Position numbers and translations under genes: made by a program. A stretch of 64,000 nt of DNA from Candidatus Omnitrophota bacterium (GTDB lineage: Bacteria > Omnitrophota > Gorgyraeia > Gygaellales > Profunditerraquicolaceae): positions 227,682 to 291,681 of the forward strand of contig JBAZKL010000003.1 of the NCBI GenBank assembly GCA_041650835.1. The letters run 5' to 3'. The notes under the pieces were generated by a model. The model had not been told where the DNA came from and ran no database searches. It worked only from the letters and a program-made list of their open reading frames with translations. Shown here one piece after another: positions 15,821 to 49,795 of the stretch (its first letter is position 1; each line of letters begins with the position of its first letter).

Positions 15821-17363
15821 AAGTCTTTATTTTCCGACAACACCGCGACATAAAGGACCTCACCAAAAAAGCATTAGCGGTATGCTCCACAGCCTGCCCT
15901 CGGTACCAGGTAGTAGTCACCAGCCAATACCGGGATATCCCCTCTCTTTTATTACCCTCCAACCAACCCTCACTCAGCACCTGCATACTCGCTTCTTTAG
16001 AAAATTTGGCGGCGATACGAGATTCAAAAAAATTCTTGGCCATAAATTCAGGCACACAAACCAACTTATGCGTCATTTCATCTTTTGACGCTCCCCTATT
16101 ATTATTAACAAAAAAACTATAGTACTGGAACGGCAAGGGAAAATCCCTGTTTGAGAAAAGAATACACTCATGCCTCTGATAATGGCCGGTTAGAAATCTG
16201 ACGGCAGCCTGGTAAGGATGCTTAAAGGGGACTCCCACATGCATGCGGCTCCAGAATTCACCCGCCCGGAGACATCGCTCTTCATTGGTATCAGTATAAT
16301 AGAAGATAGCCGCGGCAATTAACGGCAGAAAAAGCGCCGCAAAAAGGGCCTTCTTCAAAAACAGGTTCTTTAAACTATTCAACGACAGTATTAATCCCAC
16401 ATAGAAAAACGGAGAAATAAAAGCAAAAAACCTGTCAACATAGATCGAAACGGATAATTTTGAAAAAACGAAACCGAAAACAACAGGCAGGAAAACAAGG
16501 GACTTGATCATTCCCATACGCGGGCCATGAGCCAGCCCAAGTATTATCAGTAAAACCGCGGTCAAGCTTAAACTTATGGAATTAAAAAAGGGGAGCCGGT
16601 TATAGCCGAATAACATATTGTTAAAAGTGATCAGCGGGCTTATCCACAGCGGAACGGGCGCCCAAAAGGAAATCTGTTTAAAAAAATCAGCCTGCGCCAT
16701 AAAAACACGCAGGCATAATACCAGGCTCACCAGCAATGCCGCCATGCAGAAAAACGCCAGCCTTTTATCAAGGCTCCGAAAATGCAGGACAACAAAAAAC
16801 AACAGAAAAAACCCAAGCCTATAATCAGTACAGACGGATAGGACTAAGACAAAAAAACAAGAATAGGCGTATCGTATGCGAGGAGCGGCCACATAACGCG
16901 TAAACACATACCAAAACAAAATTGCTTCAAAAATAATAAACGAGTAACTGCGCGCCTCCTGGGAATACCATATCTGAAACGGTGAAAGTATAAAGATCAG
17001 GGAAACCAGCCACGCGGCTTTCCTGTTTCCCACCATAGCAACCAGCCGAAACAAAGGATAAAGAGAAGCCGCGCTAAAAAACGCTGAAGGAAGGCGTAAG
17101 GAAAAAAGGCTGTTCCCAAAAAACGATGTCCAATTTTTAAGGAACCAGGGATATATAAACGGGTTAAAATCGAAAATTTGAGCGTTTTTGAAAAAACCTA
17201 TCGCCCCAAAGAAAGAATAGGCTTCATCATACCAGATATCATGAAAACTCAAACGAAACATCCTGGTACCCAAAGTGATAAGTGTCAAAATAAGAATAGC
17301 GATCTTATCATTCTGGATAAACAGAAGAAGCCTCTTGATTCGCAGGGAAAAAGAACCTTCCAT
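15780..17363 (-). CDS. ArnT/PMT-like membrane glycosyltransferase (GT39/GT83 family)
   Basis: 527 aa polytopic membrane protein; N-proximal DIWYDEAYSF (DE motif loop) characteristic of polyprenyl-phosphate-sugar dependent GT-C enzymes; AAGGAG SD before ATG. Confidence 0.6.
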   Translation of the reverse strand: MEGSFSLRIKRLLLFIQNDKIAILILTLITLGTRMFRLSFHDIWYDEAYSFFGAIGFFKNAQIFDFNPFIYPWFLKNWTSFFGNSLFSLRLPSAFFSAASLYPLFRLVAMVGNRKAAWLVSLIFILSPFQIWYSQEARSYSFIIFEAILFWYVFTRYVAAPRIRYAYSCFFVLVLSVCTDYRLGFFLLFFVVLHFRSLDKRLAFFCMAALLVSLVLCLRVFMAQADFFKQISFWAPVPLWISPLITFNNMLFGYNRLPFFNSISLSLTAVLLIILGLAHGPRMGMIKSLVFLPVVFGFVFSKLSVSIYVDRFFAFISPFFYVGLILSLNSLKNLFLKKALFAALFLPLIAAAIFYYTDTNEERCLRAGEFWSRMHVGVPFKHPYQAAVRFLTGHYQRHECILFSNRDFPLPFQYYSFFVNNNRGASKDEMTHKLVCVPEFMAKNFFESRIAAKFSKEASMQVLSEGWLEGNKREGISRYWLVTTTWYRGQAVEHTANAFLVRSFMSRCCRKIKTFEIDGITVDLFEF

Positions 17364-17582
17364 ATAATGCGCGCTCCTTAAGCTTTTGGGCCAGAGAAAC
17401 CGGGCATGACTTACAGCAGGATCGTTTGCATAGCGCTTACTAAATCATATTATTATAACACATCGGAAAGACAAAAATAAGCTTAAACAAGATCGGGATT
17501 ATCGAAGAGCCATTAAGAAACAAAAGAAGATATAACCGGAGAATACATCAAGATGTTAATACTGAACTGTGAGGAATGGATC

Positions 17583-17690
17583 ACACTACCTTTGGTTTCC
17601 GACAGTAAATAAAAAAAGGAATAATCATAAAACGACTATCCCTTTCTTTTTAAAACTATTCAACTAAACACGGCTCTGGCTCGTTCATGA
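17583..17690. repeat. ~105-bp direct repeat copy A (CACACTACC...AACACGGCTCTGGCTCG)
   Basis: About 93% identical to 18088-18192; a shorter third copy of the 5' portion lies at 17806-17832. Confidence 0.8.
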
Positions 17691-17751
17691 GCGCATAACT
17701 TACGCGACCGAAGCAAGCGTAAGTTATATGCGCGAATGAATCCCGAGCTTC
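17683..17751. repeat. hairpin element, divergent member of the ...TTCATGA...TCATTCATCCCGAGCT family
   Basis: Inverted repeat GCGCATAACTTACGC / GCGTAAGTTATATGCGC followed by GAATGAATCCCGAGCTTCCC; shares the ATCCCGAGCT tail with copies at 28671 and 30806. Confidence 0.45.
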
Positions 17752-18087
17752 CCTTTCTTTACTATCAGGAGCGAGGGATCTGCTTCATTACGCTATGGAT
17801 TACACTACCCCTCGTTTCCAACAGTAAAACGAGAGAAACTCGGGGTTAATTCCCGACAATTAAAACGCGGGGAATTAACGGGGTCGACGGGATTTTCCTT
17901 CGACGCACTCGCTTGATTCAATTACAATCACTGTAAGTCGCTCGTTTGCTCAGGATGCATCCTCTTATACAAACAAAAACTCGCTGTTTGTGCCCGAATA
18001 ATGGGCAAACGACGCGAGTTAAATTATCTCAAAACAAAAAAATATATTTGTTCAGTAGTGAGTGAGCCCCGCTTTTGGCGGGGCGCG

Positions 18088-18192
18088 TCACACTACCCCT
18101 CGTTTCCAACATAAATAAAAAAAGGAATAATCATAAAACGACTATCCCTTTCTTTTTAAAACTATTCAACTAAACACGGCTCTGGCTCGTCA
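18088..18192. repeat. ~105-bp direct repeat copy B
   Basis: Near-identical to 17583-17690. Confidence 0.8.
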
Positions 18193-18231
18193 GAGCCTCG
18201 CTCAAGAGCCGTTGTTTCTTCCCTAAATGTT

Positions 18232-18268
18232 GCGAAAAACCATCTCCTTACGGTTGATGGTTTTTCGC
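18232..18268 (-). terminator. stem-loop (13-bp perfect stem GCGAAAAACCATC/GATGGTTTTTCGC) just 3' of tRNA-Asp, nested in a 78-bp palindrome (18209-18286)
   Basis: Perfect inverted repeat; U-rich 3' arm on minus strand; outer arms CCGTTGTTTCTTCC/GGAAGAAACAACGG. Confidence 0.4.
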
Positions 18269-18283
18269 TAGAGGAAGAAACAA

Positions 18284-18359
18284 CGGGGTCGACGGGATTT
18301 GAACCCGCGATCTTCGCCGTGACAGGGCGACGTGTTAAACCGAGCTACACCACGACCCC
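18284..18359 (-). tRNA. tRNA-Asp (anticodon GTC)
   Basis: Cloverleaf: acceptor GGGGTCG/CGACCCC, anticodon arm TCGCC-CTGTCAC-GGCGA, T-loop GGTTCAAATCC; no encoded CCA. Confidence 0.9.
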
Positions 18360-18748: not shown

Positions 18749-18787
18749 ACTCTATATTCTTGACTCTATATTCTTGATTCTGAATTA

Positions 18788-18861
18788 ATGGGCGATAGAG
18801 GACTTGAACCCCTGACCCTCTGCGTGTAAAGCAGATGCTCTAACCAGCTGAGCTAATCGCC
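18788..18861 (-). tRNA. tRNA-Val (anticodon TAC)
   Basis: Acceptor GGGCGAT/ATCGCCC, D-loop AGCTCAGCTGGTTAGAGC, anticodon arm TCTGC-TTTACAC-GCAGA, T-loop GGTTCAAGTCC. Confidence 0.9.
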
Positions 18862-18891
18862 CTCAATTTCTCTCTCTTACAAGCCGGAAAT

Positions 18892-21360: not shown

Positions 21361-21500
21361 TATTAAAGTCTAAAGATTAAAGTTCAAATAACCAAGGAAA
21401 ATTAAAGGCTTAAGGTTAAATTTTAAAATTACCTACCTGCCGGCAGGCAGGAACCTTAGCCCTTTAACCTTCCTTTGTTATTTATACTTTAGCCTTTAAT
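21361..21500. repeat. ~140-bp AT-rich palindromic intergenic element, copy 1 (centre CCTGCCGGCAGG)
   Basis: Arms ...AACCAAGGAAAATTAAAGGCTTAAGGTTAAATTTTAAAATTACCT / AGGAACCTTAGCCCTTTAACCTTCCTTTGTT... are mutual reverse complements; same element at 28531-28747 and 37871-38004. Confidence 0.8.
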
Positions 21501-21536
21501 CTTCATCAAGAGCCTAATAATTCCTGCGTTACTTAA

Positions 21537-22167: not shown

Positions 22168-22211
22168 GTCCACGGTCAACAGTCCATAGACCATGGACCA
22201 TCGACTATCGG
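22168..22211. repeat. short tandem NGACCAT heptamer repeats between atpD and atpB
   Basis: GTCCACGGTCAACAGTCCATAGACCATGGACCATCGAC; the same GACCAT array occurs at 30950-30983 and inside pyrK (28945-28973). Confidence 0.6.
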
Positions 22212-23504
22212 CTATTTAGGCCAATATTCCTCGATCAATGATCTTTTTATCCCGGTTTCTTCCGGAGTAAAACATTCCCGCAATATCATCCATGCCTTAT
22301 CCAGGGCTTTTTCTAAAGGGATATTCAGCTTAAGCGACATCATTTCCCGCTCAAATAAAACCCCGTATTTAAGAAGCTTTTTATCCCAGTTACTCATCTG
22401 GAATCCCATTGATTGCTTCTCGCGGGTTTCCCGGTAACTGGCAAACAACTGGATCATGGTATCCATAATTACGCGATGATCGCTTCTGGTATTGCCGTTT
22501 ACCTGCTGTTTCAGGCGGCTCAGCGACCCGAACGGCTCGATAACCCCGTTCTTCAAATAAAACTGCCCTTCAGTGATATATCCGGTATTGTCGGGCACCG
22601 GATGCGTCACGTCATCCCCGGGCATGGTGGTCGCGGCAAGAATAGTAATCGAGCCTGCGGTATCAAAATCGACCGCTTTTTCATAGCGCGCAGCCAATTG
22701 GCTGTAAAGGTCCCCGGGGTATCCTCTATTGGAAGGGACCTGCTCCATGGTGATCGCGACTTCTTTTAAGGCGTCGCAAAAATTAGTCATATCGGTTAAA
22801 AGCACCAAGACCCGCTTTTTGGCAAGCGCGAACTGCTCGGCAACCGCTAAGCTTATATCCGGCACAAGCAGGCACTCGACAGTCGGGTCTGCCGCGGTAT
22901 GCATAAAAAAGATCGAGCGCGAAAGCGCGCCCGCCGCCTGCAGCGTTTCCTTAAAAGAAAGATACTCGTCATATTTAAGGCCCATTCCCCCTAAAATAAT
23001 GACATCGATCTCCGCCTGAATGGCGATACGCGCCAGTAATTCATTATACGGCTCCCCCGCGATAGAAAAAATGGGCAGCTTCTGCGATTCCACCAGCGAA
23101 TTAAAAACATCGATCATCGGAAGTCCGGTACGGATCATTTTATCGGGGATGATCCTTTTGACCGGATTGACCGGAGGCCCGCCGATATCAATAAGGTTTT
23201 CCGAAAGATGTACGCCCTGGTCCAAAGGGAGGCCGCTTCCGTTAAAGATCCTGCCGAGCAGGTTCTCCCCGCTTGAGATACGCATGGGATGCCCCAGGAA
23301 ACGGACCTTATCTCCCGTCGAAATACCCCTACTCCCGGCAAAAACCTGCAGAGAGACTTTTTTGCCGTCAAGCCTGATGACCTGGGCGAGTGAGACTTCC
23401 CGGCGGGTAGTAACTTCAGCGATCTCCATATAGCCGATACCTTCTGCTTCCACCGTGATCACGTCGCCGGCGATCTGAATGATATTCGTATATACCTTAT
23501 GCAT
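22212..23504 (-). CDS. atpB: V/A-type ATPase subunit B
   Basis: Track ORF 22212-23546 (444 aa); the likely true start is Met15 ([13 protein letters not shown]..., nt 23504), giving an 8-nt overlap with atpA; non-catalytic nucleotide-binding subunit. Confidence 0.85.
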
Positions 23505-26455: not shown

Positions 26456-27151
26456 TTATTCCTGACGATGTATCTCTTTGAGATATGCATCGACGGCTTT
26501 TAACGGGTCCGCGGCTTCCAGTATCGGCCGGCCGATAACCAGAAAATCGCTTCCGGCTCCAACCGCCTGCGCCACGGTCGCGGTCCTTTTTTGGTCATCA
26601 GCTGATTTTGCATCAGGGCGTATCCCGGGGGTCACGATAATAAATTGCCGCGGGATCTCTTTACGCAATAACGCGGCTTCACGCACCGAGCACACAACGC
26701 CTCCTAACCCGCATTCCAGGCTTTGAGATGCCAGCCGCAAGACTTCTCCGGGAGCTGCTTCCTGGCTTGTCAAAACAGTAACTCCCAACAAGATCGGTTT
26801 TTTTACTTTAAGTTTTTCTGATTCCTCTTCTGCCGCAGCACATGCTGCCTTAAGCATCGCCGCCCCGCCGCAAGCATGCAGCGTCATCATCTCTACCTGA
26901 AGCCTCACCGCCTGGCGGACAGCGCAGGCGACGGTATTCGGGATATCATGGAATTTCAAGTCCAAGAAAACCCCCGCCCCTTTTTTCCGGACATATTCTA
27001 CGATCGCCGGCCCCGCCTGCGTAAAAAGCTGCAAGCCGACCTTAAAGACCTTAACGCGCGGAGACATTGTATCGATAAAGGCATGCGCCCGGGCGAGCGT
27101 ATCGACATCTAAAGCGAGAATAATTTCCGGTTTTCGGGCTGCTTGATTCAT
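26456..27151 (-). CDS. pyrF: orotidine 5'-phosphate decarboxylase
   Basis: 231 aa; ILALDV...K.GLQLFT...DLKFHDIPNTV motifs. Confidence 0.9.
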   Translation of the reverse strand: MNQAARKPEIILALDVDTLARAHAFIDTMSPRVKVFKVGLQLFTQAGPAIVEYVRKKGAGVFLDLKFHDIPNTVACAVRQAVRLQVEMMTLHACGGAAMLKAACAAAEEESEKLKVKKPILLGVTVLTSQEAAPGEVLRLASQSLECGLGGVVCSVREAALLRKEIPRQFIIVTPGIRPDAKSADDQKRTATVAQAVGAGSDFLVIGRPILEAADPLKAVDAYLKEIHRQE

Positions 27152-28128
27152 AATTGCAGTGACCCTCGTAATAATGAAATGTCTAACATGTCATTCACCG
27201 CGAGGTATCGCTTGATACCTTCGATTATTTCCATACTGACGCCGGGATTAATAAAATTCGCCGTGCCTACGGCAACAGCAGTCGCCCCGGCGATCAAAAA
27301 TTCCAAAGCGCTCGCGGTATCCATAATACCGCCCATCCCGATGACCGGGATATTCACCGCGCGCGCGGTCTCCCAGACCATCTTCACCGCGACCGGCCTG
27401 ACGGCTGGGCCGCTTAATCCGGCTACCCCCGCGGCTATCTTCGGCTTACGCGCCATGACATCGATACTCATGCCGGTCAGCGTATTGATCAAAGAAACCG
27501 CGTCAGATCCCGCCGATTCAGCGGCAAGCGCGATATCACTGATACAAGTAACATTGGGGGATAATTTGGTAATCAAAGGTTTTTTGGCCACCTTACGCAC
27601 GGCCCTGACCAGATCATAGGTCGCCTTGGGGTCCTGAGAGATCAATCGCCGTTGCTTCTCTCCTTGCGGCCTGCGACCTGTATCTTGTTTACCCCGAGTT
27701 TGTCGAGGGGCGCCGTGCGACTTTACATTGGGACAAGAAATATTCAACTCAATTGCGTCAACGCCCTTGACCGAATCAACAGCATCTACGATCTTAATAA
27801 ATTCATCCAAGCCGCCTTCAGAAGCAACGCTCAAAATAACCGGGACCCCGGTATTTTTTAAAAACCCGAGTTTATCGCGCAGAAAAACATCTAATCCGGG
27901 ATTTTCCAATCCTATGGAATTAAGCAAACCCGAAGGCGTTTCACAGGTACGAGGCATAGGATTACCGCAGCGGGGCAGGAGCGTCACGGTCTTGGTGACA
28001 AGGGCCCCCAGCTTCTTCAGATCGACAAAATCCCGGAATTCCTCTCCATAGCCGAACGTGCCGGAACAAACCGTGACCGGATTCTTTAAATGCAATTTTC
28101 CTATCCTTACCGCGAGAGACGGATCCAT
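27148..28128 (-). CDS. pyrD: dihydroorotate dehydrogenase catalytic subunit (class 1B-type) with a ~22-aa Arg/Gln-rich in-frame insertion
   Basis: 326 aa; KNPVTVCSGTFGYGEEF, NISCPNVK active-site region followed by atypical insert HGAPRQTRGKQDTGRRPQGEKQRRL before ISQDPKA. Confidence 0.85.
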   Translation of the reverse strand: MDPSLAVRIGKLHLKNPVTVCSGTFGYGEEFRDFVDLKKLGALVTKTVTLLPRCGNPMPRTCETPSGLLNSIGLENPGLDVFLRDKLGFLKNTGVPVILSVASEGGLDEFIKIVDAVDSVKGVDAIELNISCPNVKSHGAPRQTRGKQDTGRRPQGEKQRRLISQDPKATYDLVRAVRKVAKKPLITKLSPNVTCISDIALAAESAGSDAVSLINTLTGMSIDVMARKPKIAAGVAGLSGPAVRPVAVKMVWETARAVNIPVIGMGGIMDTASALEFLIAGATAVAVGTANFINPGVSMEIIEGIKRYLAVNDMLDISLLRGSLQL

Positions 28129-28144
28129 GCGTTACTGATGCCCC

Positions 28145-28504
28145 CTATTTACCTATGATAAAATTAATGGCGATAAAAAGCAAAAAAATTCCGAATATGC
28201 GTTTTAATAAAGGATCCGGCACCTGCTGCACCACGCTTGCTCCCAGGAATCCTCCGATGAAAAAACCGATACAAATAAAACCCGCCATCCCCAATTTCAC
28301 GTTCCCGGCGTAATAATAACGCAATGCCGCTAAAAGCCCTATGGGCGGAATGAGTATCGCCAAAGTCGTACCCTGCGCCTGGTGCTGCGTTAACCCGAAG
28401 AAATAAACCAATGCGGGTATCAAAATGATCCCGCCGCCGATGCCGAACATCCCTCCCAAAACTCCGGCGGTTAATCCTAAGAGGATGTAGAGGAACGAAT
28501 TCAT
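28145..28504 (-). CDS. TauE/SafE (DUF81) family membrane protein, half-length (4-TM) form
   Basis: 119 aa; GGMFGIGGGIILIPAL motif; about half the usual ~250 aa. Confidence 0.5.
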   Translation of the reverse strand: MNSFLYILLGLTAGVLGGMFGIGGGIILIPALVYFFGLTQHQAQGTTLAILIPPIGLLAALRYYYAGNVKLGMAGFICIGFFIGGFLGASVVQQVPDPLLKRIFGIFLLFIAINFIIGK

Positions 28505-28530
28505 AAAAACCCCCTTACTTTAAAAAAGCT

Positions 28531-28747
28531 TAAAGGCTATAGTATAAATTTTAAAGTATAAAGTCTAAATAACAAAGGAAGGTTAAAGATTTAAGGTTAA
28601 ATTTTAAAATTACCTGCCTCACCGGCAGACAGGAACCTTTGACCTTGAAATTTCCTTTGTTCTTTGAACTTTGAATGAACCATGCCTCAGGCGCTTATGG
28701 TTCATTCATCCCGAGCTCTGTCGAGGGTTAACCTTTAGACTTTAATC
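28531..28747. repeat. AT-rich palindromic intergenic element, copy 2, carrying a nested hairpin element (28671-28727)
   Basis: Same arms as copy 1 (…GGTTAAATTTTAAAATTACCTGCCTCACCGGCAGACAGGAACC…); right arm interrupted by TTGAATGAACCATGCCTCAGGCGCTTATGGTTCATTCATCCCGAGCTCTGTCGAGGG. Confidence 0.75.
28671..28727. repeat. hairpin element TTGAATGARCC-RTGCCTCWGGCGYTT-ATGGYTCATTCA + TCCCGAGCTCYGTCGAGGG, copy a
   Basis: ~95% identical to 30806-30862; 12-bp stem TGAATGAACCAT/ATGGTTCATTCA. Confidence 0.8.
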
Positions 28748-28749
28748 CA

Positions 28750-29607
28750 TCACCATTTTACAGCGCCTGAATCAAACACCGGGCCGTCTTTACAGACGCG
28801 CTTATATCCATCGGTAGTCTTGACCACGCACCCTAAACAAGCGCCGATACCGCAAGCCATATGCTCCTCTAACGACAGCTGCGCGGGGATATTTTTCTCA
28901 CCTGCAATACGGCTTACTTCTTTTAACATCGGCTGAGGGCCGCAGGCATAGAGAGTCGACGGTCGATGGTCAATGGTCGATAGTACGGTATCAAGCAAAT
29001 CAGTAACGTATCCTTTATGCCCTAGAGAACCGTCGTCAGTAGAGATCTTCACCTCATGCCCTGATTTCTCGAATTCATTTTTGCAAAGAATTTGTTTTCT
29101 TGTTTTACCACCGATCAAAACAATTCCCTTGAAACGTTCGGCCTGCAGCCTGCGGCCGGCGGCTGATAATTGTTCCGCCAGGAAAACAAGCGGGGCCACT
29201 CCCATACCTCCCGCCACTAATATCGGGTACCGGGCATTATCTATCGTGAAACCGTTGCCTAAAGGACCAAGGATATCGCAAGAATCTCCGGGCTTTTTTT
29301 CTGCTAACGCTGCCGTACCCTTGCCGCGGATCTCATACAGAATGGTCACGGTTGTCGGTGATCGGTGATCGGTGATCGATTTTCGGCCAGCAGGGTCACC
29401 GAGTACCGAATGAATTCCGAAGGGCCTGCGTAATAACGGCGAACCGCTCTCGGAAACCTGAACTTCTAAAAATTGACCGGGGACAGCCTTCGCCGCGATC
29501 CGGGCAGATAAAAGGGACATTCTATAATAATCCTGCCCCGCCGGCGCGTTACTTATTACCCGGGCTTTTTCCTGGAACATCTTTTTCTTCATGGTCATTT
29601 CTGGCAT
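28750..29607 (-). CDS. pyrK: dihydroorotate dehydrogenase electron-transfer subunit (FAD/2Fe-2S) carrying two in-frame short-repeat insertions
   Basis: 285 aa; RPFGIHS, C-terminal CGIGACLGCV Fe-S motif; insert SITDHRSPTT encoded by (GGTGATC)x3 at 29355-29380 and STIDHRPSTL encoded by GACCAT-type repeats at 28945-28973. Confidence 0.85.
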   Translation of the reverse strand: MPEMTMKKKMFQEKARVISNAPAGQDYYRMSLLSARIAAKAVPGQFLEVQVSESGSPLLRRPFGIHSVLGDPAGRKSITDHRSPTTVTILYEIRGKGTAALAEKKPGDSCDILGPLGNGFTIDNARYPILVAGGMGVAPLVFLAEQLSAAGRRLQAERFKGIVLIGGKTRKQILCKNEFEKSGHEVKISTDDGSLGHKGYVTDLLDTVLSTIDHRPSTLYACGPQPMLKEVSRIAGEKNIPAQLSLEEHMACGIGACLGCVVKTTDGYKRVCKDGPVFDSGAVKW

Positions 29608-30410
29608 TGGGGGCAGAAATATGTTCCCCTTCCGCCCAGAGCGGTCCTTTTTACTGCTGTTTTACAAACCGGGCAGGGCTTTCCTTCCCGTCCATAAACT
29701 TTATGGTATTGAACATAATCCCCCGCCTCACCCGAAAGCTGCACATACTGGTCGATCGAAGACCCCTTATGTTGTATAGCCTCCTTCAGGGTATCGATGA
29801 TCTCCTTAAATAACAATTCTTTTTCTTTGCCGGTAAGGCTATTAGCCGGCCGCGCGGGATTGATCCCGGCCCTGAATAATGCCTCAGCCGCGTAAAGATT
29901 GCCGACACCCGAAAGAAATCCCTGATCCATTAATAAAGGCTTTATCCTGGTTTTCTTGCCGCCGAGCATTACCTTAAATCTATCGCTGTCGATATCGAAA
30001 GGCTCCGGCCCCAACCCTTGAATGAATTTCAGGGATTTCCAATCATCAATTAACCGTAACTCGCCGAAGAGGCGGCGGTCATTAAAATCAAGCAGTTTCC
30101 CGTTAGACAATTTAAAACTGACGCGGCTTTGCGCAGCGTCCCCGGGATAAACCAGTTGTCCGGTCATCTTTAAATGCACGGCGAGCGATTTGCCGCAAGA
30201 CAATTCCAGGATCAAAAGCTTCCCCTTACGCAGGATGTTTTTTATAACGCAGTTCTTTATTTCTTTGACAAAAACATCCCTGCTCGGCTCACGGATGACC
30301 CGGGGATTATTAATAATGACATCCGCGATCTTCTTCCCCAGGACCGCTTTTTCCAATTCACGCTTTATAGTTTCAACTTCAGGCAGTTCCGGCATGAGCT
30401 TACCCCTCAA
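29595..30410 (-). CDS. mutM: formamidopyrimidine-DNA glycosylase
   Basis: 271 aa; N-terminal MPELPEVE (catalytic Pro2/Glu3), C-terminal zinc finger CPVC...CPQC. Confidence 0.9.
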   Translation of the reverse strand: MRGKLMPELPEVETIKRELEKAVLGKKIADVIINNPRVIREPSRDVFVKEIKNCVIKNILRKGKLLILELSCGKSLAVHLKMTGQLVYPGDAAQSRVSFKLSNGKLLDFNDRRLFGELRLIDDWKSLKFIQGLGPEPFDIDSDRFKVMLGGKKTRIKPLLMDQGFLSGVGNLYAAEALFRAGINPARPANSLTGKEKELLFKEIIDTLKEAIQHKGSSIDQYVQLSGEAGDYVQYHKVYGREGKPCPVCKTAVKRTALGGRGTYFCPQCQK

Positions 30411-30796
30411 ATTACCTTGACCCAGATCTCCCGGTTACGAGGCCCGTCACTTTCACAAAAATATATCCCCTGCCAGGTCCCGAGCATAAGCCGGTTGTTT
30501 TCAACGATGATTGTCAACGAAGCGCCGAATAAAGAAGATTTAATGTGGCTGTCGGAATTGCCTTCTTGATGGGCATACCCGGCATTTTCCGGAATAAGCT
30601 TATTAAGCGTTTTAAGAATATCCGCCCGCACTGACGGATCCGCATTCTCATTAATAGTCAAACCCGCCGTTGTGTGCGGACAAAAAACAACACAGAGCCC
30701 GTCGCTTACCCTGCCGCGTTCGATGATACCGCCGACCGTCTCCGTAATATCAAGTAATTCAACGCGGTTATTTGTTTTTATCCTTATCTTTTCCAC
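30407..30796 (-). CDS. yjbQ: YjbQ/UPF0047 family protein (secondary thiamine-phosphate synthase enzyme)
   Basis: 129 aa; TTAGLTINENADPSVRADI motif. Confidence 0.8.
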   Translation of the reverse strand: MEKIRIKTNNRVELLDITETVGGIIERGRVSDGLCVVFCPHTTAGLTINENADPSVRADILKTLNKLIPENAGYAHQEGNSDSHIKSSLFGASLTIIVENNRLMLGTWQGIYFCESDGPRNREIWVKVI

Positions 30797-30805
30797 TTTT
30801 TTACC

Positions 30806-30862
30806 TTGAATGAGCCGTGCCTCTGGCGTTTATGGCTCATTCATCCCGAGCTCCGTCGAGGG
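30806..30862. repeat. hairpin element TTGAATGAGCCGTGCCTCTGGCGTTTATGGCTCATTCATCCCGAGCTCCGTCGAGGG, copy b
   Basis: See 28671-28727. Confidence 0.8.
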
Positions 30863-30949
30863 ATATCTCCTATCTGACATGCGACCTGAAACCTGCAGAC
30901 TGATCCTCCGATCTCCGGACACCCGATAGTCCCGGATTTCCGGTTCCCC

Positions 30950-30983
30950 GGACCAACCTTGACCATAGACCATCGACCATGGA
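30950..30983. repeat. tandem NGACCAT heptamer repeats immediately 3' of carB
   Basis: GGACCAACCTTGACCATAGACCATCGACCATGGAC. Confidence 0.6.
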
Positions 30984-32642
30984 CTACTTGCGTCTTGCGT
31001 CGAGTGACTTGCGGCTTACGGCTTTTCTACCCTGAGCTTGCCGAAAGGTGGCTATCCCCTGATATTCCTGGATCGACTTAACATCCAGATCTTTTTTAAC
31101 CAGGACCTCGATCGCGTTGACAGTCGCCTGCGCCCCGGAAATCGTAGTAGTATAAGCGATATTGTAGGTAATGACACAGGAGCGGATCTTAACTTCATCC
31201 TGACGGGGCATCCTGCCCGAAGGGGTATTGATCACCATTTGGATCTTGCCGTCTTTCATCAGGTCAAGCACATTCGGCCTGCCTTCGGCGATCTTCGGCA
31301 GGATATTCACCGCGATATCGTTGCGTTTGAGCACTGCCGCTGTCCCGGAAGTCGAATATATATTAAACTTCAGGTCCTGCAGTTTTTTCGCGATAGAAAC
31401 TATCGAACGCTTATCTTTATCCCTGACGGAAATAAAAACATTTCCGCTGCGGGGGAGCTTTTGCCCCGCGGCGAGCTGGCTCTTAACAAACGCCCTGCCG
31501 AAATCAACGTCGATCCCCATGACCTCTCCGGTTGATTTCATTTCCGGGCCCAAAATAACATCTACTCCCGGGAAGCGGTTAAACGGGAAGACGGATTCTT
31601 TTACCGCGACATGTTGCGGAACGGGCTCACGGGTAAAGCCTAAATCCTTCAATTTCTGCCCCAGCATGACCTTGGTTGCCAGCTTTGCCAGCGGCACACC
31701 AATCACCTTAGAAACAAACGGGACAGTCCGTGAAGCGCGAGGATTGACTTCTAAGACATAAACTTTATCGTCTTTGATAGCGTATTGCACATTCATAAGC
31801 CCTAAGACACGCAGCTCCCGGGCCATCTTGCAGGTAGCTTCCCTGACCTTATCCAGCAGCTCTTTGGACAGGGTATATGTCGGAAGAGTCATCGCGGAAT
31901 CCCCCGAATGGATCCCGGCTTCTTCAATATGCTCCATGATCCCTCCGATAACAAAGTCCTCTGCGTCACCGATCAAATCCACATCGACCTCGATCGCATC
32001 TTCCAGGAATTTATCTATTAACACGGGGTGGTCGCCGGAAACACGGGCAGCCTCAACGATAAACTTTTCCAGCATACTTTCTTCATAAACGATCTCCATT
32101 GCCCGCCCGCCCAGGACATAGGAAGGCCTGACCAGGACCGGGAATCCGATCTTCCGCGCCACGGAAAGCGCTTCTTCATAATTAAACGCCGTACCGTTCT
32201 CCGGCTGTAAAAGATCCAGCTTTTCAAGCATCTGCTTAAATCTTTTTCTGTCTTCTGCTATGTCAATGGCGTCGGCACTGGTCCCGAGGATATTGACCCC
32301 TGCCTTACGCAGCGGTAGCGCTAAATTAAGAGGCGTCTGTCCGCCGAACTGAACGATCACCCCCATCGGTTTTTCCGCTTCGAGGATAGTCATAATATCT
32401 TCAAAGGTAAGCGGCTCAAAATAAAGGCGGTCTGAAGTATCGTAATCGGTCGATACGGTTTCGGGATTACAATTAACCATGATGCTATCGACACCCTCTT
32501 CCCGCAGCGCGTAAGCGGCATGGCAGCAGCAATAATCAAATTCGATCCCCTGGCCGATACGATTCGGCCCGCCGCCTAAGATCACAACCTTCTTTTTGGG
32601 GGTATCGTTTAATCCTTTATTATTTTTATATTGATCCTGCAC
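30984..32642 (-). CDS. carB: carbamoyl-phosphate synthase large subunit, C-terminal half only (split CarB: second ATP-grasp + MGS-like domain)
   Basis: 552 aa beginning [32 protein letters not shown]...[23 protein letters not shown], which aligns to residues ~550 onward of canonical 1070-aa CarB; no N-terminal half is adjacent. Confidence 0.85.
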
Positions 32643-32867: not shown

Positions 32868-34109
32868 TTAAAACAAACTTAACTGCTGATCATGGCTTTC
32901 CTGATTCGAATCTTGCTCGCCGAAAATCGAGATAATGCCATACTCTCCGTCATAACCTGCCTTGATATTTACTTTTCCTTCACGCACCCGTAACACCCCT
33001 TCGGCAATGCGTTTAGGCAGGCCTCTTTGCAGGTCTTCCCCGGAAGCTCTCAACAATATATCGAATTCCGTCCCGAATTTTGCCACCAGGCTCATATATT
33101 CACGCTCGACAGAAACAGCGCCTTTAGCTACCCCTTTTGCCTCCGCGATGATCTCATCGAACGGGATCATGCGCTTAAAGGGAACGCTTGTTTCCGGCAC
33201 AATCCCTTCCGGCCGGTCCGCGAGCTGCGCGACGCGATTCATTACCCCGACCGTCACCGGCTTGCCGCATTTCGGGCACTTGCCGTTATTCTTTTTAGTC
33301 TCTTGCGGCGACAAACGGCTTTCGCACAGGCGATGCCCGTCATAATGATACTTGCCTTCTTCCGGGAAAAATTCTATCGTGTATAAAAACCTTTTATTAT
33401 CTTTAGTCCTCAAGACATCGCGGATCGTTCTATAATCCAGTTCGCAGTTAAAAACATTTGCCTCACGGCCTATTCTTTGAGGAGAATGTGAATCGCTGTT
33501 GGATACCAGGCTGAAGCGGTCTAAAGCGCTCAACCTCCAATTCATCGCCGGGTCACTCGACAATCCCGTCTCCAGCGCGAATATTTTCGGCGTCTGGGCC
33601 TCAAAACAATCCTCTATCCGGTCGAATCCCGACATAGAGCCGAATACTGAAAACCAGGGAGTCCAGATATGCCCGGGAATAACCATGCAATTTTCATCGA
33701 TATCAAAAACAATGCGCGCCAATTCAGCCGCATCCAATCCCAGGATCGGACGGCCGTCGGATGCCAGGTTCCCGCAGCGGGAAAGCACCTCATTGATCTT
33801 ATCGGTTGTTTTAAACGAAGGGCTCAGCACTATATTATGGACCCGATAAGTCCGGCCGTTCTTGGAATAGATACTGCTTATCTCCGATGATAAAATAAAA
33901 TAGATACCGTTATATTTAAAAAGCCCGTTTCCCAGGTCTTCAAGCTTATTCTTGAGCTCCTCCAGCCACAAGTGATAGGTAAAATCACCTGTCCCCATCA
34001 ACGTAATACCCTTAAGCTTGGCCCATTGCGCGATATGCTCAACATCCATATTGCGGCTGGTGGCCCGGCTGTATTTAGAGTGAATATGAAAATCAGCGAT
34101 AAACTCCAT
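32868..34109 (-). CDS. endonuclease Q-like PHP-domain nuclease with C-terminal zinc ribbon
   Basis: 413 aa; ADFHIHSKYSRATS, GTGD, GHIWTPW, SNSDSHSP, CPKCG motifs match archaeal/bacterial EndoQ signature blocks (recalled from memory, not aligned). Confidence 0.75.
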   Translation of the reverse strand: MEFIADFHIHSKYSRATSRNMDVEHIAQWAKLKGITLMGTGDFTYHLWLEELKNKLEDLGNGLFKYNGIYFILSSEISSIYSKNGRTYRVHNIVLSPSFKTTDKINEVLSRCGNLASDGRPILGLDAAELARIVFDIDENCMVIPGHIWTPWFSVFGSMSGFDRIEDCFEAQTPKIFALETGLSSDPAMNWRLSALDRFSLVSNSDSHSPQRIGREANVFNCELDYRTIRDVLRTKDNKRFLYTIEFFPEEGKYHYDGHRLCESRLSPQETKKNNGKCPKCGKPVTVGVMNRVAQLADRPEGIVPETSVPFKRMIPFDEIIAEAKGVAKGAVSVEREYMSLVAKFGTEFDILLRASGEDLQRGLPKRIAEGVLRVREGKVNIKAGYDGEYGIISIFGEQDSNQESHDQQLSLF

Positions 34110-34196
34110 AATCGTTATTATCGTTAGGTTCGTTAGTGCCGTTAGTTTCGTTCAACGGATTAAACGAATTTAACGGCACTAACGATATTAACGAAA
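34110..34196. repeat. tandem TAACGA(N2) octamer repeats forming the entire 87-bp spacer between Mut7-C stop and endoQ start; internally palindromic
   Basis: Minus-strand reading ...AACGAAACTAACGGCACTAACGAACCTAACGATAATAACGATT-ATG; related arrays precede pyrR (37448-37490) and rsmI (47755-47820). Confidence 0.7.
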
Positions 34197-34649
34197 CTAA
34201 CCTAATATCTCTTTTAATACACTATTTACATTTCCCCAATGTGTCCCCTGCCAATATACCCGCGAGCATTTTTCACAGATAAAAAACTTCTCTTGGGTTT
34301 GAAAAACATATTCAGGGACAAGGGCTTTTACCTCTGCTTTAACTTTAGGCTTTAAGGCCGTATTGCAGAGCGTACACCTGGTAAACATCATACCAGAAAC
34401 CGGCTCAATACTCAATGTTTTTAACAGCTCCGCGAGCTGTTCTTTAACCCGCTCATTTTTGATAACTACGGTCCTTAACCCTCTTGATGGCGCACGTTGA
34501 CGGGTCCGCGTGACAATGATCCTGCCGTCTTGTAACGCCCGGAGCATTAAAGAAGCTCTCTTATCGCCCAAAAAACATTGCGTATCGTAACCTAAGATTC
34601 TTAACCACGTTACAAGCCTGCCTAATTCTTTGGTCAGAATGAATTTCAT
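34197..34649 (-). CDS. Mut7-C RNase domain protein (PIN-like + C-terminal zinc ribbon)
   Basis: 150 aa; CTLCNTAL...CEKC zinc ribbon and N-terminal PIN-like segment. Confidence 0.65.
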   Translation of the reverse strand: MKFILTKELGRLVTWLRILGYDTQCFLGDKRASLMLRALQDGRIIVTRTRQRAPSRGLRTVVIKNERVKEQLAELLKTLSIEPVSGMMFTRCTLCNTALKPKVKAEVKALVPEYVFQTQEKFFICEKCSRVYWQGTHWGNVNSVLKEILG

Positions 34650-36907: not shown

Positions 36908-37490
<583 letters not shown>

Positions 37491-37870
37491 ATCCCTCGCG
37501 CACACGCTTGCACGCTTCGGGATATTTCGGCCATACAACTTACGTTCGCTTACGCTCCGTGCTGCTCCGCTTCCCTCGCGTTAACGCTTGAAAATTTCTG
37601 CGAAATTTTCTGCGCACGCTTCGGGATTAATTCGCAGACGGCCTTCGGCCTACACTTTACGTTCGCTTACGCTCCGTAAAGTGTCTGCTCATTAAAAAAA
37701 AACCCAACGGCTTATTATGCGGTTGGGATATGATTTTTTAAGGTCGTGAAGCATTTTTCTCTACCTTGCCGGCTTCTCATGAGCCAGCTTAAAGGCCTCT
37801 TTGTATTTAAATAAATATACCACCTCCGGGGGCGTTTGTCAAGGTAAATGACAAGGATGAGGATGACGGA

Positions 37871-38004
37871 AAAGTTTAAAGGATAAAGCTTAAAGAACAA
37901 AGGAAAATCAAAGATTAAAGGTTAAATTTTAAAATTACCTGCCGGCAGATAGGAAGTTTAAGAATTAAACCTTAGACCTTTAACCTTCCCTTGTTATTTA
38001 AACT
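37871..38004. repeat. AT-rich palindromic intergenic element, copy 3 (centre CCTGCCGGCAG)
   Basis: ...AAGATTAAAGGTTAAATTTTAAAATTACCTGCCGGCAGATAGGAAGTTTAAGAATTAAACCTTAGACCTTTAACCTTCCCTTGTT... Confidence 0.8.
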
Positions 38005-38116
38005 TTAGCCTTTATCATTACCCCTGTTGCTAAATAATAAAAAGAAGGGGTGCTCAAGAGACGTCCTATGGGGGCTGATAAACCAAAGGGCGGGAACACC
38101 CCTCCTGAACTGCTTA

Positions 38117-41100
38117 TTATTCTATTATCAACGGCTCCTTAGCCGTAAAAGCGATCCTCGCAAGAGCAACCTGCAGGTCGCCCGCCGGCTTATCCGATTC
38201 CAACAAAGCCAGGAATTCCCTGAAAGCCGCTTCTGTAGGCTTAAGCTGATCCTCTTCTAACCGCAAGATATCCGCGATACAGGAAAGTACTTTATCTACC
38301 TGCGGATTAATATCGCCTTTAACGCAGCAAGCCTGCAAATATTCCTTGATCCTGTCGCTGGCAGGAATGATCCCCGCCTGGATCATGCCCTGTATCTGCT
38401 GCCATTCTTCATCGAGATCAATATTTTCCAGGCGGTTCAAAGGCGGCATAACGCTCATTCCGGGAGTATTCATCGGCTGCGTGACAATAGGGAGTGAGCG
38501 CATATCAATACCTCCCTTTTTAATCGGGCTTGAAGATCGCGGCTGTGCCGCACTTTCAGAAGCCGCTACGGCAGTATCGAGTTGCGCCGCTATCGGGCCG
38601 AAAGACCCGTCATTTGCATTGACGATAATAGATGGCGGCTCATTATCCGGCTTTACGTTTATTCTTCCGATGAGCATATACGGTGCTGACAACTTTAAAT
38701 TAGAGAAATCCCCCCATTGATTACTTAAAAATTCAAAAACATTCGGGAATATTTGATCATTTTCTAACGCCCCGCTGTCCCGTAATTGGGATGTCAATTG
38801 ATTGCAAGCTTTTGCTGTCATTGAACCAACCATGGAATAAAAAATATTCCATTTAGCGGCTACTTGAACTTTATCCTCGGCCTCATCCACTTCACGCGGA
38901 TTATCAACATATATGCCTATATCAATATCGCTGAATTCCGAATCATTGCTCCCTTTAATAGCTTTATCTTTAAGCCTGCCTCCGGTCATATAGATCCTTA
39001 TTTCTCCGGGGCGTTGAACACCTATGCTTATAAGATACTTCTGCGCTTCTTGCGCGATCAACTGCCCGGCCCTCAATAAATGATCGCCGCTAAAAACTGT
39101 AACAAAGCTGCGGGAGGAGTTCCTGACTACCGGATCGGAGGAATCCATCTGCTTCCGGGTGAACTCGAGCATATCCTGTATCCTGGTCTTCACCGCCGCC
39201 TCTTCCTCGGGAGTTACCCCTTCAAGAAATTCAGCATCTCCCGTATTTGCCATCGGGCTGCTGCTATGAACGCTATCGGTACGGAACATGGTAAACATAG
39301 TCCGCTTCGAGGCGTCGACATCCCAATCATCGACAATAAGCTGTATGACTTTAAGCCCGGGGACAAAGAATTTCCGGCTATCCACTGTATTAGCGATCAG
39401 GGCGATCCCGACATGCGACAAATGCCCCTCTATGCCGGACAAAAGGCGCTTATAATCGGTGTCGCCTATTTCATGAGCTCCGTCAAACTTGACCTGAGCA
39501 TCATAGACCGTATTAGGAGAATTAAAATAGACGAAATCATATTCACCGGAGAGCATGTCGAATTCCCTGCCGCGCTCGACTTTATGCACGAAAACTTCCG
39601 AATTCCTGCTCCCGGGAAAAAGCAGGTCAAGGTTAAACACCGTATTATCCACCGCTTCTTGAAGTATATCGATAGTGTCCAGATGGATCTTTAAATTATT
39701 GGATCTTGCCCAGGCATACGCCGTTAATACATCGACCCCGGTCCCTGAACCGATAACTAACACCCGGATATCGTCTCTGCCCGCAGCCCGTAAGTGCCGG
39801 GCGACAGCAGCCATCGCCCGGGGGCTTTGGATGAACCTGGAAGAATGTAAAGAAAGCCCGTAATCATTGACCGGAGAATATACCGCTTTATCGCGCGCGA
39901 TCACGCCTTTACCGGTCAGGGTCATTAAAAGGCGGTAGGCCTCAAGGTCATTTACTCCTCCGACGACCTGATAGCCGTTTTCATCTATTATTTTTTCCAA
40001 AGCAAGGATCTCCTGCTTTACCTGCCCCACCGGCCGGCGAAGGATCCTGCTCACATAGCCTGAGGCGATCGGCGAGCCGGCGGAACGGGTAGAAAAACGC
40101 TTTGCCCTCCTGAGCCATTCGGAAGGCTTCTTTTGATCATTCCCGTCGAGAACTTCCACAATTGCGGAATCTTTTGAATGCACCAGCAGGATATCACCCT
40201 GGCTGCCAAGCGCCTGCAGAAAGAGGTCCCCTTGCGCTGCTTTTTGCAATTGCTCTACGCCCAAATGTATCCCCGGAACACCATTTTCCGAGATAAGGAG
40301 CGATCTTTTTCCTTGCGGATCCCAAGCTTTGAGCTTATCCACTGCCCAGGCAAAATCATCCATGGAATTGGTGTCGACGACATACCCCAGATTGCCCTGG
40401 GGAGCGGCTACCACAAAACCATAAGTAGCGACGGGGTGGCTTTTATGATTACGAAACACGATGGTGATGCCCAATCCTTTATCAACAAACTCTATCTCAT
40501 CAAAAGCGTTTTTCTCGAAAGCGTCTTCAACCGGCTCATTCGCCAATAAATCCCGCGCCCCTTGCCGGGACAAACTTTGAGCCTCCTCAAGAGGAACGCT
40601 CTCCCAGGCCTCTGCGCCAAGCAGGTAAGCCGCGATGACCTCGCTTAATTCATCTCTTACTTCCCTGGTCATAATCAAGTCGAACGCATTGATCTCTTTA
40701 TTGGCATTTCGCACGATAAAACCGATATCATTACCTCTCCCGTTCTTTATCGCTTCCTTTTTTGCTTCAGCATATTTCTCAATGATGAACTGCACAAAGC
40801 CGGCATTATGGTCGGCGTGATTATGCGTCAGTATCCAGCGCGCGGGAAGTAAATTCCTTTTTTTGAGATTCGCGTACGCTTCAAGAGAAGGATCAACAAA
40901 AATACTTTCTTTCCCGACATTAATAAGGAAATTGGTCACGTCTTCTTCCGACAAGGCGTCATGAACGCCCATGAACGTGACCGAAACTTTATCCGCGGGC
41001 CGCAGCTGATACTCCTGGAGCTGCTCCCGGGTAAAATCGCCTGTTTTATGGATATGTTCATCGGTTGAAGTATCGCGCTTACGGGAGGCGACAGCGCGGG

Positions 41101-47100: not shown

Positions 47101-47754
47101 TCAAATAATAACTACGAACTCGCCGCGGGGCCTTTGCAGGGTAAACTGTTCTAAAAGCGTGCTTGCCGGGCCGCGTTTTACCTCTTCGAACTTCTTTGTA
47201 AGTTCGCGCGCCAGGACTACCTCTTTTTCGCCGAAGATGTCCCGGATATCCGCAAGAGTCTTTAAAATACGGTGGCAGGATTCATAAAAAATGATCGTGC
47301 ACTCCAAAGCAGAAAGCTCTTTGAGCCGGTTATGGCGGGAAACCGATTTATTGGGAAGAAAACCTTCAAAAAAGAACCTATGGCTGGGCTTGCCGGAAAG
47401 TACCAGCGCGTTAACAAAAGCCGTAGGACCGGGGATACAGGTAATTTCTATATTATTCTCTAATGCCGCGTTAATGAGGTTATAACCGGGATCGAGGATA
47501 CCGGGAGTCCCGGCATCGCAGACCAGCGCGATATTTTTCCCGTCTCTGAGCAAACCAAGAAGATACTCGCCCTTAATGATCCGGTTATGCTGGTAATAGC
47601 TGGTGGTCGGGACATGGATATCATAATGATTAAGTAAAATTTTAGTGTGGCGGGTATCTTCGCAGGCGATCAGGTCGGCTGATTTTAAAACTTCCAGCGC
47701 GCGTAAAGTTATATCCTTGAGATTGCCTATGGGGGTAGAGACGATATAAAGCAT
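47101..47754 (-). CDS. rsmI: 16S rRNA (cytidine1402-2'-O)-methyltransferase
   Basis: 217 aa; MLYIVSTPIGNLKDIT...ACEDTRHT tetrapyrrole-methylase fold motifs. Confidence 0.8.
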   Translation of the reverse strand: MLYIVSTPIGNLKDITLRALEVLKSADLIACEDTRHTKILLNHYDIHVPTTSYYQHNRIIKGEYLLGLLRDGKNIALVCDAGTPGILDPGYNLINAALENNIEITCIPGPTAFVNALVLSGKPSHRFFFEGFLPNKSVSRHNRLKELSALECTIIFYESCHRILKTLADIRDIFGEKEVVLARELTKKFEEVKRGPASTLLEQFTLQRPRGEFVVII

Positions 47755-47820
47755 CGTTGTATTCGTTATTATCGTTAGTTTCGTTATTGTCGTTTAATTC
47801 GTTAAACGAAATTAACGATC
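47755..47820. repeat. TAACGA(N2) octamer repeat leader immediately 5' of rsmI start codon
   Basis: Minus-strand: ...TAACGAATTAAACGACAATAACGAAACTAACGATAATAACGAATACAACG-ATG. Confidence 0.7.
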
Positions 47821-49659: not shown

Positions 49660-49795
49660 TGAGCACCTCTTGTGATTTTTTGATTGGACATTCCGCTATT
49701 CCTTCGTAGCCCTACATTGGTAAGATCCCTCGCTTCTTACAGTAAAATGAGGGAAGCTCGGGATTAAATTTTCCCGCTTTCGCGGTCAAATTTAG

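Follow-up and report, generated by a model that had tools for sequence, protein, structure and literature searches.

Repeat segments within pyrD and pyrK

We analysed a 64,000-nt stretch of a Candidatus Omnitrophota contig, hereafter the window, in which pyrD and pyrK, encoding the catalytic and electron-transfer subunits of dihydroorotate dehydrogenase B (DHOD-B), carry repeat segments inside their open reading frames (ORFs). We read these segments as translated passenger sequences derived from two kinds of small Omnitrophota repeats, and put the probability of this reading at about 0.72. The segments of pyrK are arrays of 7-nt units, and we conclude that the arrays evolve in place through gain and loss of whole units, selection passing only net multiples of 3 nt. 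The insert of pyrD is best read as an old insertion with a repetitive extragenic palindromic (REP)-like module, now drifting, that is, as what PMC3733652 calls a REP-decorated protein. The segments under study and their genes are as follows.

27148-28128, minus strand: pyrD, DHOD-B catalytic subunit, 326 aa (5ue9_A and 1ep1_A, E ~1e-74).
27640-27717, minus strand: pyrD insert, residues ~138-163, SHGAPRQTRGKQDTGRRPQGEKQRRL, between NISCPNVK and LISQDP.
27692-27710, plus strand: REP-like mini-hairpin CCCC-GAGTTTGTCGA-GGGG in the pyrD insert.
28750-29607, minus strand: pyrK, DHOD-B electron-transfer subunit, 285 aa (L. lactis 1ep3_B, E = 3.6e-34).
29353-29403, minus strand: pyrK site 1 loop insert, residues ~69-85, LGDPAGRKSITDHRSPT, following the FAD-binding RRPFGIH strand.
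29349-29378, minus strand: pyrK site 1 heptamer array, GATCACC three times perfect and then degenerate units (coding strand), found by Tandem Repeats Finder (TRF) and scoring 17 in our own scan.
29133-29163, minus strand: heptamer array of pyrK site 3 (plus-strand unit GCCTGCR), coding for AAGRRLQAE (TRF 29139-29163).
28955-28983, minus strand: pyrK site 2 array, coding strand TCGACCA TTGACCA TCGACCG TCGAC, GTCGACGGTCGATGGTCAATGGTCGATAG (TRF period 7, 3.9 copies).

TRF reveals three tandem arrays of 7-nt units in the pyrK of the window. These arrays hold 3-4 units each, and only one is perfect. At site 1, the sequence TCGGTGATCGGTGATCGGTGATCGAT (29355-29380, minus strand; TRF period 7, 3.4 copies, 100% matches) encodes K-SITDHRSPTT, exactly as an earlier note on this DNA had described. 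Compared with L001 and L003, two close relatives, the window has 12 additional aa at site 1, and 75 of 116 orthologues keep a 9-residue baseline there. Alignment of pyrK to that of L198, the closest relative (~90% nucleotide identity), shows two clean gaps of 21 nt (3 x 7), one inside the site 1 array (29360-29380) and one inside the site 3 array. Site 3, which the earlier note had missed, is also 7 aa longer than in L003. Because L003 has the short state too, the 21 nt of site 3 represent a gain in the window.

Site 2 differs from the others. The earlier note had placed this repeat 10 nt too low and had taken it for a second insertion; the repeat is present and encodes STIDHRPST directly before YACGP. 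Equivalent residues exist in L. lactis (NEIDFEVDALY), and in Omnitrophota almost every orthologue carries an equally long segment, often with an identical peptide; the note itself had named such residues as grounds for refuting an insertion. Judging from these alignments, site 2 is an integral segment of constant length with units that turn over, and not an insertion. Its likeness to the intergenic GACCATN array at 30959-30984, also pointed out in the note, holds at 17/18 and 17/19 identities (blastn E = 0.008), and another intergenic array (22168-22215) has this unit too. The pyrD insert and pyrK sites 1 and 3 are in frame, leave the ORF intact and are missing from some orthologues, either close or insert-free ones; the last point does not hold for site 2. 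The peptides encoded at the repeat segments are SITDHRSPTT, STIDHRPST and APRQTRGKQDTGRRPQGEK.

Compared with L. lactis PyrDB and with insert-free Omnitrophota orthologues, the pyrD insert adds ~21-22 residues; it lies between NISCPNVK(HG) and (I)SQDP, in agreement with the ~22-aa insertion after SCPNVK that had been proposed. The Cys of the NISCPNVK motif is Cys135 in 1ep1_A numbering, described as the catalytic base; the insert therefore begins four residues past the catalytic Cys, in the loop following beta-4. Among 120 Omnitrophota orthologues, 13 are insert-free (5-residue baseline), and the rest carry 1 to 30 additional, unrelated residues at exactly the same site. PyrD proteins from mostly other phyla, among the matches listed, are ~300 aa long and lack the insert. 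P0002, L003 and L198 share the insert of the window, and L001 has a version that lacks 17 of its aa. Compared with L198, the insert has diverged by 16.7% against 7.3% in the rest of the gene (2.3-fold, p = 0.008).

Turnover of arrays among relatives

Comparison of relatives shows that the arrays change by whole units. The spacer between pyrK and the TauE-like gene displays array indels of 7 and 21 nt relative to L198. At site 2 the window reads TACTATC GACCATT GACCATC GACCGTC GACTCTC and L003 reads AACTATC GACTCTA GGCTATG GACCATT GACCATC; the length is equal, and the pair GACCATT GACCATC is displaced by two units. Within a cluster of at least 90% identity, every site 2 unit differs between members (RLSTIDYRLSTIY versus TLPLAICHRPLAIY). 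In seven genomes, site 2 consists of ~5 units in a constant register before TAT-GCC-TGC, with at least five unrelated unit sequences.

A census of indels in 14 syntenic genes, made against L001 and L003, found internal indels of at least 4 aa only in pyrD (once), pyrK (twice) and the CarB tail (once), and the longest version of each has period 7 as its best period. In this set PyrK evolves faster than any of its neighbours (68-72% identity versus 81-96% for the others). DNA from nine further Omnitrophota loci has heptanucleotide tandem arrays as nearly all of the inserts at these sites, and the single exception has a 16-nt unit. Examples among orthologues include CGCATAT x4, AAGTTCA x4, GTCRCCN x10 and CCATCGA x3.5, some with a central palindrome, and four or five arrays, no two sharing a unit, can occur in a single pyrK. 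An assembly artefact was rejected, as the same sites bear arrays in many independent assemblies.

These observations bear on the possibility that each insert is a copy of a dispersed palindromic element transposed into the ORFs, similar to a Rickettsia palindromic element (RPE) or a miniature inverted-repeat transposable element (MITE). The earlier note had favoured RPE-like behaviour, and the presence of GACCATN arrays at three loci of the window would agree with dispersal. For pyrK the idea of a discrete palindromic element is not supported: one gene holds unrelated, site-specific units at different sites, close relatives differ by whole heptamer units and not by gain or loss of an element, and site 2 is no insertion. 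A blastn-short search with each insert against the window gave only matches of 9-18 nt, so that the window holds no full-length second copy of any insert.

Hairpin elements and the pyrD insert

The RPE- or MITE-like explanation also draws on pyrD. The DNA of its insert contains CCCGAGTTTGTCGAGGG (27693-27709), and the motif CCCGAG-N(1-30)-CGAGGG, reported before in this insert, occurs six times in the window versus 0.24 expected. The mini-hairpin resembles the module ATCCC-GAGCTCYGTCGA-GGGAT, which is carried by an intergenic hairpin element of ~60-65 nt. The window holds two copies of this element.

28668-28732: intergenic hairpin element copy 1, GAATGAACC..GGTTCATTC plus ATCCCGAGCTCTGTCGAGGG (family D8), inside a TAAAGNN heptamer array.
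30803-30865: second copy of the intergenic hairpin element, sharing 85% identity with copy 1.

Both copies are missing from the orthologous spacers of L198, copy 2 as a clean 63-nt gap, indicating that the hairpin element is mobile in this lineage. Similar structures lie at the PyrD site of other lineages: L087 has the palindrome CCTGCCTGCCGGCAGGCAGG between direct AAGTCACAAG repeats, and the P0073 lineage has a related hairpin in a 41-nt unit that is present once or twice. REPs within genes, coding for 20-30 aa, are documented (Di Nocera et al. 2013, PMC3733652). All of these favour transposed palindromic elements. Folding of the inserts argues the other way. The hairpin element folds with z-scores of -3.0/-3.8, and the pyrD insert (-0.28/-0.50), pyrK site 1 (-0.52) and site 2 (-1.11) fold no better than shuffles. 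A hairpin spanning a whole insert was accordingly rejected for the pyrD and pyrK segments; the only stem-loop in the inserts is the 19-nt mini-hairpin of pyrD. We thus consider it unlikely that each insert is a transposed RPE- or MITE-like copy.

For pyrD, the reading as an old and drifting insertion fits what relatives show. L003 retains the mini-hairpin motif with a longer stem. In L198 synonymous changes (CCT CGA to CCC CGG) destroy CGAGGG and the peptide APRQxRG is kept, so that at this position L198 preserves the peptide and not the DNA motif. Within the window just the 17-nt CCCGAG..CGAGGG module of the insert recurs. The period-7 signal of the insert (0.39-0.42) is not significant after multiple testing, and given this weak value we do not claim the window pyrD insert as an array.

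The hairpin is widespread. The 20-nt motif ATCCCGAGCTCNGTCGAGGG gave 108 exact matches on 106 metagenome contigs with GC contents from 0.32 to 0.74, in 97 distinct contexts from soil, sediment and groundwater contigs (L092-L197). It is preceded by NGTC in 46 of the 97 contexts and by CGTC in 7, and the copies of the window are preceded by ATTC; CGTC at one end is the tag of a superfamily of REPs, short stem-loops of high copy number with an associated RAYT (REP-associated tyrosine transposase) gene (PMC3733652). About one quarter of the matches lie in long stop-free stretches, and other ORFs elsewhere may host copies. This hairpin is a cross-phylum REP-like element without a matching Rfam family.

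Further palindromic sequences of the window were noted. A long form of the motif, CCCGAGCTTCC...GGAGCGAGGG, occurs at 17742-17777 (plus strand), 17809-17844 (minus strand) and 49727-49762 (minus strand), near tRNA-Asp and tRNA-Glu genes; its stem has tandem G.A/A.G mismatches and no Rfam match. Long imperfect palindromes at 21365-21506, 28526-28680 and 37871-38019 have TAAAGNN arrays as arms and CCTGCCGGCAGG as centre, and this centre is translated as PCLPAGRQ in the L087 PyrD insert.

Predicted structure and broken alleles

We examined where the segments fall in AlphaFold2 models. The PyrK model has a mean predicted local distance difference test (pLDDT) score of 83. Site 1 (residues 70-85) is predicted as a loop between strands 63-69 and 86-92, with pLDDT below 50 at residues 71-81, and site 3 as a loop (152-161, pLDDT ~65) after helix 134-151. 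Site 2 is modelled with confident pLDDT at ~210-218; helix 201-211 ends in it, followed by a short loop and then the beginning of strand 218-223. The model of PyrD is poor (mean pLDDT 67.9; residues 134-166 are coil), too poor for fold searches, and the insert was positioned from sequence alignment to 1ep1 and 5ue9. PyrK sites 1 and 3 and the PyrD insert are thus predicted to occupy non-core loop positions, which supports the earlier expectation that the inserts are tolerated in loops; in the models, loop tolerance fits all sites except pyrK site 2.

Two alleles are broken. The pyrK of L198 (2099-2898) is read as two ORFs of 162 and 106 aa, the frame being shifted by a 16-nt deletion, AAAAATGAATTCGAGA, that lies outside any array; the cause may be decay to a pseudogene, variation in the population or a faulty assembly. 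In L090, pyrD (1501-2470) is split at the insert into ORFs of 165 and 167 aa and has one copy of the 41-nt hairpin-bearing unit; translation of the second ORF begins with the Leu codon of LISQD. The intact pyrD of L091 (18-1022) has two copies of that unit; both loci belong to the P0073 cluster of another Omnitrophota lineage. The split gene represents a frameshift allele or else an enzyme in two pieces. No frameshift caused by a heptamer was seen among the alleles compared.

Period seven and gene specificity

The preference for seven is specific. Our own scan counted four period-7 arrays in the window versus 0.1 in dinucleotide shuffles, two within pyrK and two intergenic, and no arrays of period 4-6, 8 or 10-13. 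Both kinds of repeat, heptamer arrays and the hairpin element, also exist in the intergenic DNA of the window, as the note had stated. The two intergenic arrays are listed below.

30959-30984, plus strand: GACCATN heptamer array, the unit of pyrK site 2 (TRF, own scan with 30961-30984, and blastn).
22168-22215, plus strand: GTCNACN/GACCATN heptamer array I12 (own scan).

Since three heptamers equal seven codons, identity at offset 7 serves as a signature at the protein level. In 80 non-redundant PyrD inserts, peptide identity at this offset is 19.1% versus 6.9% (z = 16), and z reaches 9 at PyrK site 1 and 14 at site 2; elsewhere in PyrD no excess is seen. PyrK has 116 tripeptide repeats at distance 7, PyrD 64 and the PyrF control 9. 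PyrD insert lengths peak at +7 and +14 aa, with the main peak at +20 aa, and as multiples of 7 aa are only partly seen we do not count lengths as evidence.

Arrays scoring 11 or more were counted over 165 kb from 16 Omnitrophota loci, with the following results.

pyrK: 17 arrays in 9.8 kb.
pyrD: 6 arrays in 14.3 kb, biased upward because some pyrD loci were picked for carrying inserts.
Other coding sequence: 0 arrays in 118 kb.
Intergenic sequence: 9 arrays in 22 kb.

The enrichment of pyrK over other coding sequence is extreme (p = 1e-19), and in 12 PyrK genes the arrays occupy ~6 recurrent, gap-prone loop positions. One explanation is that the arrays are selected, either as contingency repeats that switch pyrK and pyrD by frameshift or as useful disordered loops. 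It would account for the specificity, for the roughly ten-fold lower number of 7-periodic tripeptides in PyrF, for the many perfect arrays among orthologues and for the existence of broken alleles such as those of L090 and L198. Selection of this kind nevertheless seems quite improbable. The only pyrK frameshift seen lies outside an array, and all other pyrK genes that were recovered without selecting for intactness are in frame. With 3-5 units the arrays are short, and most are imperfect; the insert sequences are unrelated across lineages, and divergence of the pyrD insert exceeds that of the remainder of its gene.

How the arrays may arise

Within the reading as passenger sequences, the heptanucleotide arrays of pyrK, which resemble the STRR (short tandemly repeated repetitive) elements, would arise and turn over in place by changes of whole 7-nt units. 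Because a 7-nt step shifts the frame, only net three-unit changes (21 nt, 7 codons), or gains balanced by losses, would survive in an essential gene. The array, read successively in three frames, would then yield polar, disordered peptides with a periodicity of seven residues, for example ITDHRSP and STIDHRP. Arrays would last only at permissive loops, so that the same sites are hit repeatedly in different lineages with different units. Small mobile hairpins would insert now and then. In pyrD an older insert of 66 nt, with a mini-hairpin of the mobile family that is widespread in metagenomes, would sit in the flexible loop past the catalytic Cys. This scheme requires no assumption of a function for the inserts.

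Several points weigh against this scheme. That the inserts are translated we infer from intact ORFs, and replication slippage or unequal exchange enters as a presumed step. Differences between units concentrate at the same one or two unit positions (p = 0.0004), and such clustering is not predicted by random decay of slippage products. For the new arrays of the window L198 offers only a weak seed (ACCGACA versus ATCACCG), and the arrays may have been imported pre-formed. Moreover, array density is four-fold higher in pyrK than in intergenic sequence (1.7/kb versus 0.4/kb), and mutation followed by loop filtering does not obviously account for the pyrK enrichment.

The clustering at fixed unit positions is what junctions would give if the heptamer arrays were footprints, that is, target sites duplicated by repeated insertion and excision of hairpin elements, and not products of slippage. 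Hairpin elements do lie within heptamer arrays, as in the TAAAGNN units around 28668-28732 and in L087, and unit sequence is specific to the site. Set against this are the new 21-nt arrays of the window, which have no hairpin element nearby, and the flanks of the elements themselves, where no 7-bp target duplication was found and the P0073 element has only a 5-nt GTCAC repeat. No transposase was identified either, no search for a REP-associated tyrosine transposase (RAYT) gene having been made. We regard an origin as footprints as very unlikely.

On account of the pyrK enrichment, the clustering of unit positions and the broken alleles, a selected or targeted process is kept as a minority reading. 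In its targeted form, a dedicated heptamer-writing process would act by preference on PyrK and PyrD, through hairpin footprints or slippage-prone repair synthesis, which we hold to be improbable. If it were true, an essential redox enzyme would become hypervariable, with loops that are continually rebuilt, and the L090 and L198 alleles would represent functional on/off or fission states and not accidents.

On the reading as passenger sequences, new protein loops are built time and again, in 21-nt steps, from units of a length not divisible by three, within an essential enzyme and beside its catalytic Cys. This offers a simple, testable rule for the origin of indels and disordered loops in Omnitrophota, and hundreds of orthologues together with relatives at ~90% identity form a natural series for its study. 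The 7-residue periodicity is a protein-level signature that can be searched for elsewhere. For annotation, low-complexity loops and split pyrD or pyrK calls should be treated as genuine features of Omnitrophota. Heptanucleotide repeats are the commonest long simple sequence repeats of bacteria, their origin and effects are poorly understood, and they are usually regarded as intergenic; the concentration in pyrK, strong and unexplained, is a possible route to new biology.

Genes and other repeats of the window

The run of genes from pyrF to carB lies on the minus strand throughout, and the PyrD, PyrK and PyrF proteins of the window are 100% identical to proteins of an Omnitrophota metagenome-assembled genome in NCBI. 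The other genes mentioned are as follows.

26456-27151, minus strand: pyrF.
28145-28504, minus strand: TauE-like gene.
29595-30410, minus strand: fpg.
30407-30796, minus strand: yjbQ.
30984-32642, minus strand: carB, C-terminal part.
38117-46507, minus strand: ORF of 2,796 aa without heptamer arrays.

The spacer between carB and yjbQ (30797-30983, ~190 nt) contains heptamer arrays and hairpin element copy 2; the relatives L001 and L003 lack it, their genes abutting or overlapping, and L198 has a shorter version. The C-terminal tail of CarB (30987-31030) extends into CTTGCGT heptamers. Arrays of a 9-nt unit (TCGTTA plus three variable bases) occur at 34100-34201, 37447-37510 and 47751-47823, and those at 34100-34201 and 47751-47823 are inverted pairs, potential long hairpins in intergenic spacers. 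A long intergenic stretch beside tRNA-Asp (17363-18283) contains a partial copy of the tRNA-Asp 3' end (~17878-17900) and 79-nt direct repeats, 100% identical, at 17606-17684 and 18112-18190; the stretch appears to be what is left of an element that integrated at the tRNA gene. At 18749-18781 a 14-nt tandem repeat, ACTCTATATTCTTG x2.4 with 94% matches, adjoins tRNA-Val (18789-18862). Scanning the whole window at Rfam gathering thresholds gave nothing beyond four tRNAs, and Rfam E-value scans of 27600-31100 and 17300-18300 gave chance-level matches only.

Relation to known repeat systems

Our literature searches found no account of in-frame heptamer arrays in Omnitrophota enzymes, of arrays with three-unit steps in essential enzymes, of recurrence at loop sites across a phylum with turnover of units, or of a concentration in pyrK and pyrD. 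One of the closest known systems is the STRR type. Heptanucleotides are described as the most abundant class of long simple sequence repeats in many bacteria, for which slippage has been proposed (Mrazek 2007, via PMC4692102 and PMC4679880), and known examples are the cyanobacterial STRR, GGGAATC of Xanthomonas and TAACTGA of Beggiatoaceae (PMC4692102, PMC4679880). As in these systems, the arrays described here are tandem 7-nt units in 2-6 copies, period 7 is over-represented, length and sequence vary among close relatives and inverted pairs are frequent. One STRR is said, by the title of a 1997 paper by Vioque (listed among the references of PMC2858038), to lie within a functional gene, that of cyanobacterial RNase P RNA. 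Otherwise the known arrays are described as essentially intergenic with one or a few units per genome, whereas those of pyrK and pyrD lie in essential ORFs, change by three-unit steps and have a different unit at each site.

Two other systems share single traits. Borg proteins (PMC9879509) have tandem repeats that make intrinsically disordered regions, and the likeness lies in fast-evolving ORF repeats of independent origin that add disordered polar loops. The unit in Omnitrophota is 7 nt, and frame is kept only through three-unit steps, with 7-residue periodicity. Genic repeat units of Borgs are, in contrast, reportedly multiples of 3 nt. Small repeats dispersed in Nostoc (Elhai et al. 2008, cited in PMC5861425) are likewise very small (~20-60 nt) mobile hairpin elements. 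They belong to another phylum and have other sequences. Elhai et al. are said to have described their insertion inside heptamer arrays, a placement also seen for the 60-nt element of the window.

RPEs (Ogata et al. 2000) and REP-decorated proteins (Di Nocera et al. 2013) resemble the segments in that small in-frame repeats of ~20-30 aa lie in genes of functional proteins and are tolerated off the core, and the pyrD insert bears a REP-like stem-loop from a dispersed family. RPEs and REPs are, however, copies of a defined palindromic consensus. The pyrK arrays have no dispersed full-length consensus and no significant hairpin stability, and for this reason they fall outside the RPE/REP family; the pyrD insert has only a module of 17-19 nt in common with its family. 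Together our data show that the pyrK segments behave as STRR-like heptanucleotide repeats and are not members of the RPE/REP family, and that the pyrD insert joins the already known class of REP-decorated proteins.

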